Source: a virus
Lineage: Duplodnaviria; Heunggongvirae; Uroviricota; Caudoviricetes
DNA length: 5,472 nt
Direction: 5' to 3' (one strand)
Virus record (IMG/VR): IMGVR_UViG_2740892370_000011
In this document: positions 3,015 to 5,472 of the stretch, one piece after another
Position numbering within the stretch: position 1 is the stretch's first letter
Layout of the letters: each line of letters starts with the position of its first letter
Program-made: the position numbers and the translations under genes
Notes under the pieces: model-generated
Database searches by the model: none
What the model was told of the DNA's origin: nothing
What the model saw: only the letters and a program-made list of their open reading frames with translations

Positions 3015-5472
3015 TTAAAAATCAGCCTGACTCGGGATCAGTTTTTGCCAGATAACTGAAACGTATTTTGCCTGGTAACGGGCGTCATCAAGTGCATTAT
3101 GGCGCTCACCTTCGAATGGAATAGCCATTCTGGCATCGAAGTCTATGGCTTTCCCCAGCTCAACGATTGTGCGTACATCGCGATCGTTGTAGTAACGCCA
3201 CGGGCAGGGGATCCCCTGCCGTTCGTATGAACGGCGCAAAATCGTGTTGTCGAAGTTGGCTCCATTTCCCCAGACCTGAACAAAAAATTCACCGGAGTTT
3301 TCGTCGATAAATTCCCGCAATTGTAACAGTGCATCATCTAACGGGATTTCATCGGTCATAATGGCAGATTGCGCTTCGCGTGATTGCTTAAGCCACCATT
3401 TAATGGTGTCCCGATCAATGACTCCGCCAGCAGTTTCCAGATCGATAGTCTTACTAAATTCCGGTCCCATATCTCCGGTTTGCGGATCGAAAAATATTGC
3501 ACCTATTGAGATAATCGGGGCATCGGGATTTTTTCCCATGGTTTCAAGGTCGATCATCAGATGAATCCCCGCTCTGCTGGTGGATGTGAGATTATGATGA
3601 CCGTTCGCCTTAATTAAGGGATCTGACGCCTCGCCAGTTTCACTATCGCTGGCATGATGCTGATTGCCGCCAGTGTTCTCCTTGTGCTGATGCGCAGTGC
3701 CTTCCATTTCCTCCGGATCATTTTCCTGAACTTCAGGCTGATTCTCTCCATCGAATATTTCCTGGTATGTTGCGTCACCCATCACCGCACCACAATCAGG
3801 GCAGTTGCCGCCACCGCTCTGACCGCAGGCGGTGCAGATCTTTTCCGGTTCCTGTTGCACTACTGGTTCAGGTTGTTTCGTTTCTGGCTCGTTTTGTTGC
3901 GTATTTGGGCTGTTTTGTTCCGCTTTCTGGTCGTTCTGTTCCGTTTCTTGCTGGTTCTGGTTCACAGAATCGCGGGTCTGGATCCCCTTAACCCATTTCG
4001 GATCATTCGGGTCGCTAATCCCTTCAACAAATTCACCACGTGATACTGCAAGCAGTTCATCGGCGTCAGGCTGGCTGATATTGGCTGCCTGCATAATTTT
4101 GTTTACTTCGTCAGCGGTAACTTTTACTGACCCTGGTTGTGCGGTCGTGTCAGATGCACCAGTATTTTGTTGTGAACCTGAGTATGTACCGTTTTTGCGG
4201 GCGAAATATTCTTCTTTCGTGATTTCAGTAGCCCCAGCAGACAGCGCCTTATCCAGACCAGAAAGTTTGTTTGCGCGACCGTATTTTTCGCCATCCTTGT
4301 CGGTGAAGAGGAAGTAGAACGGCCCCTCACGCTCTACAGATGGTTCAGCTTCCGGCGCGGTTTCATTTTTTGGGATATCAGATACCTCAGTTTCCACTGC
4401 ATCAGTTTGTGTTTCTGATGACTGGAGAACATCAACAGTGCCCAGGTCTGTTTCTTCATTCTCAAACACGCCCTTTGTCGTCAGGTATTCGCAGATATAT
4501 TTGTTCAGTGCTACGGGATCTTTGTGAATGTCGATCGGACGTTCACGGACAAGGCCAAAAATAGTCTGGCGGTCGTAGCGAAGGGCATCAGGCTGTTTGC
4601 GCATTGATGCCGAGATACGCTTCCAGTCTTCGCGGCCGTTGTCGATAACTTCATTTTTTGCCCAGCGATGGATGCTGCCGTCAATGTTTCCGGCATCCAC
4701 ATCACCAGGCCAGAGAGCGTAGGCCAGTTCGTCATCCAGTGTTTTCCATGTCTGCTTGTATTCGCGATGAATGGCAGCAATGACCGGGCTGATTTTTCCT
4801 GTTGAATTTTCAGTGTACTGTTGATTGGCTCTGGCGCGGGCGAGATCAACAACAGACGTGTATTTTCCGGTTTCCTTGCGTTCACCTTCGCGACGTTTTT
4901 TCCAGATGCGCATCTCTGCCTGAATTTCGGGCCATTTAGCACCAGGAATACATTTATGCTTAACCCACCCAATGGCGTGCAACTTAAGCTCCGGATACAT
5001 GGTGTTAACTTCTGGCATTTTCATCAACGCTTCAACGATATGTCCGTCGAATGTTGCCATGTCTTCCTGCAACAATTCCTGTGCGCTAATCACCATATCA
5101 ACGGTGATGTTTTCACATGTGTCGAACTTAACCATGACAGCGTTCTGTACTTCAGGGGCCAGCTTGTCAAAAGTGACGTTCATCGGATAGGATTCAGTCT
5201 CAACCGGGACAAAAGAAGCAGACTCCTCATCCCAGCGGTTTTCCTGCATATATTCAGCATCCCATGAATCGAGGGCAGGGCGGGGTATGCCAGGTTTATC
5301 CTCGCAGACAATAAATTTATAAGCGCAGTCCTGAGCAGCCGGATAATGTTCCAGGAATTGCCAGTGAAATTTTGCGCGGGCGCGACATTCATCACCGGCT
5401 TCAATGGCAGTGGCTACAGCGACTGCACCTTCTTCCTTTATTGCCTGTTCGTCCGGAATGGCGGCGCAAATA
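3015..5472 (-). CDS. Large acidic prophage protein (over 818 aa, 5'-partial) with C-terminal DEDDh (DnaQ/RNase T-like) 3'-5' exonuclease domain, internal Cys4 zinc ribbon and Q/E/N-rich repeat linker
   Basis: The frame is open from stop TAA 3017..3015 to the window edge: 74 sense codons lie upstream of the first in-window ATG (5249), so the true start is probably outside the window. C-terminal motifs: Exo I IDLET (about 3543..3551), Exo II [12 protein letters not shown], Exo III [9 protein letters not shown] (H-x4-D). Zinc ribbon [16 protein letters not shown] at 3792..3836. Proteins at this position in EHEC prophages are often labelled exonuclease VIII-like, but I cannot verify family membership. 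Confidence 0.8.
   Translation of the reverse strand, partial: [818 protein letters not shown]
3881..3964 (-). repeat. Imperfect 21-bp in-frame tandem repeats (about 4 units) inside the nuclease CDS, encoding a Q/E/N/P-rich heptad-like linker
   Basis: Units TTTCTGGCTCGTTTTGTTGCG / TATTTGGGCTGTTTTGTTCCG / CTTTCTGGTCGTTCTGTTCCG / TTTCTTGCTGGTTCTGGTTCA on the + strand, translating on the minus strand to roughly [28 protein letters not shown]. Confidence 0.6.

Follow-up and report, generated by a model that had tools for sequence, protein, structure and literature searches.

The nearest described counterpart of the gene considered here is recE of the Rac prophage. RecE (exodeoxyribonuclease VIII; Exonuc_VIII + DUF3799) is a large, acidic early-operon protein encoded near xis-int, the excisionase and integrase genes, and its catalytic domain is tethered at the C-terminus. 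A second point of comparison is Rv2179c of Mycobacterium tuberculosis, the founder of Pfam family PF16473 and a small stand-alone exoribonuclease. A third, exonuclease A (DexA) of phage T4, is a documented 3'-5' DNA exonuclease (PMC12153337). We analysed a 5,472-nucleotide stretch of DNA (hereafter the window) from a virus of the Caudoviricetes, IMG/VR record IMGVR_UViG_2740892370_000011, which holds a ydfE-type exonuclease gene at positions 3015-5472 on the minus strand. We consider it probable that this gene encodes a DexA-like 3'-5' exonuclease acting on DNA, made early and without a partner protein, whose scaffold is of the RecE family, and that it would have come about through mosaic exchange in the central segment of the protein. 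The parts of the gene are as follows, with residues numbered on the full 823-residue protein unless stated.

3015..5472, minus strand: ydfE-type exonuclease gene, codons 6-823 plus the stop TAA (3015-3017); full-length match to PHROG 2082
4821..5472, minus strand: YdfE_N domain, about residues 1-222, mixed alpha/beta fold (precomputed Pfam PF27430)
4452..4766, minus strand: YdfE_C domain, about residues 241-345, helical bundle (precomputed Pfam PF27432; AlphaFold2 predicted local distance difference test, pLDDT, >90)
4323..4451, minus strand: acidic S/T-rich linker, residues 346-388 (27% D+E, pI ~4.05)
4176..4322, minus strand: conserved 'mid' module, residues 389-437, GPFYFLF...[11 protein letters not shown] (phmmer)
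3612..4064, minus strand: RecE-like central segment, residues 475-625 (blastn, BLASTP, NCBIfam PRK09709)
3792..3836, minus strand: CxxC-x7-CxxC motif, a putative zinc knuckle (read in the sequence)
3594..3692, minus strand: His-rich stretch, residues 599-631, six His (sequence)
3048..3563, minus strand: DEDDh 3'-5' exonuclease domain, residues 642-813 (Pfam PF16473, DexA alignment)

In-frame translation of 3015-5471 on the minus strand gives 818 codons with no stop ahead of the terminal TAA; the interval 3015-5472 reported by an earlier analysis made from the letters alone (the sequence-only reading) is one base off this frame. The matching coding sequence in NC_013353.1 comprises 2472 nt and 823 residues (WP_000048406.1, product label 'exonuclease'), from which the window copy differs at a single residue (E286 vs K), and identical (100%) DNA occurs in at least 18 complete Escherichia coli genomes among the matches listed. 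The sequence-only reading had treated the gene as a single open reading frame (ORF), and the uninterrupted codons and the single annotated coding sequence bear this out. It had also spoken of a missing N-terminus, which proved to be very short: the true ATG lies 14 nt past the window end, and the five residues MSKVF are all that falls outside. As a 2.46-kb open frame in DNA of 47% GC that is kept in thousands of genomes, the gene is neither a chance ORF nor an assembly artefact. A frameshift was rejected on the same grounds, namely the open frame, the identical DNA in many complete genomes and the single annotated coding sequence.

The full protein has a pI of 4.64, with acidic or low-complexity segments at residues 346-390 (27% D+E), 506-550 (38% Q+N, 22% D+E) and 581-640. 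AlphaFold2 models YdfE_N with pLDDT mostly above 90 (N-terminal model pLDDT 90), and no structural relative of this fold was found in PDB or BFVD. Both YdfE_N and YdfE_C were identified through precomputed Pfam annotation of near-identical proteins (92-93% identical matches, representative P0021). Models PF27430 and PF27432 are newer than our local copy of Pfam-A, and the local scan therefore missed them and returned only PF16473 and PF00929. A local result of 'no Pfam match' would wrongly imply that the N-terminal 345 residues are unclassified. The acidic low-complexity sequence, the four-cysteine (Cys4) motif, the His-rich stretch and the intact C-terminal DEDDh domain described by the sequence-only reading are all present.

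Comparison with Rac RecE places the similarity in the middle of the protein. Residues 262-625 align with RecE 278-591 (BLASTP against K-12 RecE, E 9e-61, 38% identity overall), with far greater identity over 475-625, roughly 70-80% by eye. At the DNA level, window positions 3613-4062 are 76.6% identical to K-12 recE codons 455-590 (blastn), and the junction falls at window position 3613, or RecE codon 590. NCBIfam PRK09709 matches residues 246-626 (241-621 in window numbering) at model positions 271-603, with 272.1 bits, below the cutoff of 1269. The similarity gives out shortly ahead of the PD-(D/E)XK domain (RecE residues about 600-866, with Pfam DUF3799 at 615-850), with no alignment past residue 591, and Pfam does not find DUF3799 in the YdfE-type protein, whereas Rac RecE scores 99 bits. 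Judging from these alignments, the end of the RecE-like central segment is a mosaic junction with Rac recE.

The two proteins have in common the YdfE_C-type domain, a GEFV.[18 protein letters not shown] motif, the CxxC-x7-CxxC motif and a His-rich linker. They differ at both ends: the N-terminus is Exonuc_VIII in Rac RecE and YdfE_N in the YdfE-type protein, the first ~260 residues being unrelated, while the C-terminus is a 5'-3' PD-(D/E)XK nuclease in the former and a 3'-5' DEDDh nuclease in the latter. Their surroundings differ as well, in that Rac recE is followed by recT, ralR, rcbA and xisR, whereas xis directly follows the YdfE-type gene, with no recT. Full membership in RecE was rejected given the missing PD-(D/E)XK domain, the score below the equivalog cutoff and a similarity confined to the middle. 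The suggestion that the protein might be a RecE-like scaffold with a swapped catalytic domain thus holds for that middle portion, which ends before the catalytic domain. No characterised protein was found whose full-length homology would account for every domain, RecE covering the middle only.

Within the scaffold, YdfE_C is common to Rac RecE (RecE 278 to ~350) and to every architecture class of the family (BLASTP and phmmer mapping on cluster representatives). The 'mid' module is absent from Rac RecE, where it falls in a gap of the BLASTP alignment, but several other family classes have it, with phmmer matches in representatives P0124, P0126, P0128, P0130, P0137, P0141 and others. The central segment contains a [23 protein letters not shown] motif, a Q/E-rich linker, the Cys4 motif and the His-rich stretch, the last with a partly conserved counterpart in RecE (BLASTP). 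The Cys4 residues are C551, C554, C562 and C565 (CTAC-x7-CPDC), with a RecE counterpart at 517-531. Of the close homologues, 119 of 120 have this motif, but the 68 long divergent representatives, other DEDDh-bearing ones included, all lack it. Being limited to E. coli YdfE-type proteins and Rac RecE, it represents one E. coli variant of the linker rather than a feature of the family, and is probably dispensable for the family's core function.

The C-terminal domain matches the Pfam Rv2179c-like model PF16473 with 224.9 bits (cutoff 27) over model positions 2-177 of 177. Its catalytic residues are D646 and E648 (MIDLETMG), D746 (NGANFD), and H796 and D801 (HNALDDA), which align with D7, E9, D119, H186 and D191 of T4 DexA, the D746/D119 pair being read off the alignment. 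The end-to-end Pfam match and the alignment of the catalytic pentad agree with the sequence-only reading that the DEDDh motifs are all intact, and all three exonuclease motifs are found in 117 of 120 close homologues. DexA (8KEL, 8KEN) belongs to the same DEDDh subfamily (PHROG 255, Pfam Rv2179c-like), is ~28% identical over the first 72% of the domain, and differs in being a free-standing protein of 227 residues with extra loops and helices and without the RecE-like scaffold. Rv2179c belongs to the same Pfam family by an end-to-end match.

Membership in this Pfam family allows for an exoribonuclease like Rv2179c, acting on RNA 3' ends (e.g. those of host, phage or defence-system RNAs) and not on DNA. 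The family is defined as '3'-5' exoribonuclease Rv2179c-like', many copies are so named by NCBI, and DEDDh enzymes often accept both nucleic acids. Against this, the PDB sequence search returned the T4 DexA chains 8kel and 8ken, a DNA exonuclease, as the only solved relative by sequence, and no Rv2179c chain at E 0.01 or better. Moreover, the scaffold is otherwise joined to DNA-recombination modules (the RecE nuclease and a Rad52-like fold), and the gene occupies the slot of exo/bet-type genes of lambdoid early operons. We regard activity on RNA in place of DNA as distinctly unlikely.

Scaffold-free versions of the same nuclease are also encoded in a temperate phage and in a prophage. Gp42 of Salmonella phage 118970_sal3 (189 residues; locus L006, 5995-6564) is 57% identical across the whole domain, and WP_016241026.1 of E. 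coli FG31-1 (190 residues; locus L020, 3989-4561) has 73.6% DNA identity. These two stand-alone proteins share the motifs and are encoded in the corresponding position, by the final early gene ahead of the excisionase or integrase, and neither has the scaffold. The existence of such 189-190-residue forms at the integrase-proximal position indicates that the nuclease module can function or move alone.

The relationship to DexA raises a further possibility. According to Kang et al. 2025 (PMC12153337), DexA degrades host DNA and 5-hydroxymethylcytosine (5hmC) DNA in different oligomeric states. They also reported that EcD, a DexA homologue from E. coli, showed no activity on unmodified double-stranded DNA, cleaved only modified DNA and degraded that of T4, and that its expression from a plasmid protected cells from T4. 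Among the bacterial DexA homologues in their study, Escherichia is the most frequent genus (PMC12153337). We found DNA of the DEDDh module in 4222 of 5426 complete E. coli genomes (78%), where its median copy number is two and its maximum eight, which suggests that this domain probably makes up much of that Escherichia set. The YdfE-type protein might thus serve in an HREX-type defence or superinfection exclusion, in which the DEDDh domain would degrade the 5hmC DNA of incoming T-even phages and protect the lysogen. Its catalytic residues are conserved with those of DexA, and EcD, like the YdfE-type domain, is an E. coli DexA-family DEDDh protein without DexA's extra loops.

However, EcD is a different, domain-only protein, whose termini, as read from the cloning primers, are MIDTET at the start and TIPETY at the end (supplementary primer table of PMC12153337). 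It was not found among the relatives that we fetched, none of which has these termini, and a scan of viral contigs with the 20-mer of the EcD reverse primer gave one chance match, in an unrelated contig. As for the residues proposed for 5hmC recognition, DexA W152 is paired with Y766, three residues after a Trp, and D169 falls in a DexA-only insertion absent from the YdfE-type domain, the pairwise alignment being gapped in this region. The tetramer-forming Asp of DexA is not lost, in that D90 corresponds to D718, whereas EcD has Ala at this position (dimeric state). Going by gene order only, the gene is the last of an early operon that is normally repressed in lysogens, and this argues against constitutive defence. 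A search of PADLOC-DB 2.0 gave as sole match a generic CRISPR-associated DEDDh model (E 1.1e-5), with no matches for neighbouring genes, and this weak generic match does not support a defence assignment. The diagnostic residues of HREX and EcD lend no support to an HREX-type role, which we rate as a minor possibility. A part in the degradation of host or defence nucleic acids, as suggested by the sequence-only reading, is likewise possible. The first residues of EcD are those of the Exo I motif (MIDTET...), and prophages are nowhere mentioned in the HREX paper (PMC12153337); EcD may be a prophage-derived, possibly N-terminally truncated ORF. Should EcD-type anti-T4 activity extend to the YdfE-type protein, one of the very common genes of prophages would turn out to act in defence.

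The scaffold is shared by a wider family of combinatorial architecture. A phmmer search with the N-terminal 340 residues against 1.84 billion cluster representatives returned 164 proteins at E <= 1e-3, and segments were mapped onto the 69 representatives of at least 450 residues and confirmed with Pfam. We identified two alternative N-termini (YdfE_N or Exonuc_VIII), followed by a shared YdfE_C with variable linkers and by one of four alternative C-termini: the DEDDh domain, PD-(D/E)XK (DUF3799), a ~265-residue module, or a module of the P0126 group. Every pairing of YdfE_N and Exonuc_VIII with DEDDh and PD-(D/E)XK was found.

Genomic context tracks the class of the C-terminus. In P0128, which joins YdfE_N to PD-(D/E)XK, a RecT-family gene follows, just as recT follows Rac recE, while xis/int directly follows the DEDDh proteins in five independent genomic contexts, with no gene for RecT or another annealase downstream in any of these five. 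In phage mEp460, no annealase is annotated anywhere in the genome, and the unnamed early proteins match no recombinase PHROG. Both results favour the view, put forward in the sequence-only reading, that the protein is not a simple Red/RecET resection partner. The third class, with the ~265-residue C-terminus, is followed by a Sipho_Gp157 gene; this C-terminus has no match in Pfam or among PDB sequences, PHROG searches likewise gave it no annealase label, and its Rad52-like fold is shown by structure comparison only. The branch with this Rad52-like annealase fold carries the PHROG label 'exonuclease'. The fourth class, the P0126 group (12 representatives; loci L013-L015), has the YdfE_N/YdfE_C scaffold with a ~220-residue C-terminus that matches only PHROG 26058 and no Pfam domain, and it has no partner gene before xis/int.

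The gene is widespread. The whole gene is present at >=80% coverage in 3537 of 5426 complete E. coli genomes (65%), and it occurs in lambdoid phage genome records including mEp460 (96% identical) and the HannyBb, Tritos and PPompW phages, whose labels for it vary between 'exonuclease' and 'exodeoxyribonuclease VIII'. A scan for relatives of the single protein gave only Escherichia and Shigella genomes and one metagenome-assembled genome of an unclassified Proteobacteria. The first 256 residues are 98% identical to K-12 YdfE, and the neighbours of the gene in the O103 locus and in mEp460 are DicB and the DUF1482 protein YdfD. In K-12, the Qin prophage has the order dicF-dicB-ydfD-ydfE'-IS2E-intQ', the same dicB, ydfD (DUF1482), ydfE, int arrangement. 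There ydfE (b1577) is cut by the insertion sequence (IS) IS2E after codon 256 and lacks the nuclease and everything downstream, whereas the window copy is intact. From the high identity and the shared dicB-ydfD context, we identify the window gene as the orthologue, here intact, of the pseudogene ydfE in the K-12 Qin prophage.

A search of the literature for ydfE as a whole word turned up nothing beyond incidental mentions. The sequence family is already known and catalogued. The sequence-only reading had regarded the architecture as unusual and potentially undescribed, which is not borne out: the protein matches PHROG 2082 ('exonuclease', 823 positions) end to end, contains the Pfam domains YdfE_N, YdfE_C and Rv2179c-like, has been named by NCBI, and is found in about two thirds of E. 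coli genomes.

Disruption of the K-12 copy bears on whether the gene might be no more than the decaying remains of a recE-like gene, without function and kept only through prophage carriage. Databases contain many truncated fragments (PHROGs 5943, 14078 and 8783), and the O103 prophage has IS3 insertions and an integrase annotated as frameshifted. Thousands of genomes, as well as lambdoid phage genome records, nevertheless carry the ORF at full length, and the exonuclease motifs are kept in nearly all close homologues, as given above. Ratios of nonsynonymous to synonymous substitution rates (dN/dS), obtained from the comparison of three copies, are 0.08-0.19 in YdfE_N plus YdfE_C (0.08-0.15 in YdfE_N alone) and 0.4-0.6 in the linkers. 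These ratios show the signature of purifying selection on the folded N-terminal domains, with values of 0.1-0.2 there, and together with the conserved ORF and motifs they make a functionless remnant highly improbable. The synonymous rate (dS) is itself very uneven along the gene: between the O103 and mEp460 copies, it reaches 0.12 in YdfE_N but is ~0 over the RecE-like and DEDDh parts, while the comparison with the copy at locus L011 gives 0.24 in the RecE-like part. This unevenness is consistent with intragenic mosaicism, or recombination between prophage copies.

We hypothesize that the ydfE-type gene is the last gene of a leftward early (dicB/pL-type) operon before xis-int, such that on induction or infection the protein would be made together with DicB and YdfD. 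YdfE_N and YdfE_C, followed by long, acidic and largely disordered linkers (one with a zinc-knuckle-like motif), would tether a DexA-like DEDDh exonuclease that, as in T4 DexA, would act as a Mg2+-dependent 3'-to-5' exonuclease on DNA 3' ends. The shared scaffold, which elsewhere bears the RecE nuclease (with RecT) or a Rad52-like annealase, may deliver the catalytic module to where it acts, the most plausible sites being DNA ends or intermediates of recombination and replication. Because the DEDDh form would remove the 3' strand needed by RecE/RecT-type recombination, and no annealase accompanies it, it could not be a Red/RecET-style resection enzyme. It may more likely trim or destroy 3'-ended linear DNA, as a non-essential accessory function. 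As to its origin, mosaic exchange between lambdoid prophages in the central segment may have swapped the unit of RecE nuclease, recT and downstream genes for the DEDDh module.

Several points weigh against a DexA-like DNA exonuclease on a RecE-family scaffold. No experimental study of a YdfE-type protein was found in the literature. The sequence does not settle the preference for DNA or RNA, the Pfam family being named for an exoribonuclease and NCBI often using '3'-5' exoribonuclease'. Expression from an early operon is inferred from gene order, and the dN/dS of the DEDDh domain rests on fewer than 10 substitutions.

The window is E. coli chromosomal DNA, 100% identical to that of O103:H2 and related Shiga toxin-producing E. 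coli genomes, and the region beyond the exonuclease gene holds the following features.

519-594, minus strand: tRNA-Asn
695-1531, minus strand: mtfA
1586-1675, plus strand: tRNA-Ser(cga) (ARAGORN and genome annotation)
1728-2753, minus strand: tyrosine integrase (Pfam Phage_integrase)
2753-2956, minus strand: excisionase, DUF4224 (Pfam DUF4224 and PHROG 1266 excisionase)

The exonuclease gene is the first gene upstream of xis-int, with 58 bp between its stop and xis and no gene in that interval. A scan for promoters and terminators gave no signal over the shuffled expectation. The left (int) end of the prophage adjoins tRNA-Ser(cga), beside mtfA, with tRNA-Asn across mtfA; judging from its position, tRNA-Ser(cga) is likely the integration site of the prophage. 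In the RefSeq annotation of NC_013353.1, the integrase at 1703-2753 is a frameshifted pseudogene, and the window ORF at 1728-2753 (341 residues) retains the C-terminal H...Y region. On the far side of tRNA-Asn in the O103 genome, a gene for an inverse autotransporter is disrupted and bears an IS3 insertion. In O103:H2 strain 12009, an IS3-family element splits the early-left region of the prophage (entries noted at 12722-14673 and 15130-15468 of locus L001), and the same prophage has a short repressor-like gene of 339 nt ('LexA family protein'). The prophage of strain 12009 that carries the window copy may be defective.

The DEDDh form is abundant, yet we found no functional study of it in the literature. 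Automated names for it swing among 'exodeoxyribonuclease VIII', 'exonuclease' and '3'-5' exoribonuclease'. Reading it as a RecE paralogue of opposite polarity, without an annealase, corrects the 'RecE/ExoVIII' label on several phage records and advises caution against assuming RecET-like recombination in prophages that carry a ydfE-type gene. More generally, and tentatively, the YdfE/RecE scaffold could be a general targeting module of lambdoid early operons into which alternative DNA-end effectors are plugged (a 5'-3' nuclease with RecT, a 3'-5' DEDDh nuclease, a Rad52-like annealase, or the fourth module), with the DEDDh form as the annealase-free activity; we hold this broader proposal to be doubtful at present. 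If true, the DEDDh form would represent an unrecognised activity, which could serve as a weapon against phages that compete or have modified DNA, or could carry out a step of recombination or replication restart with a polarity opposite to that of every known phage recombinase system.

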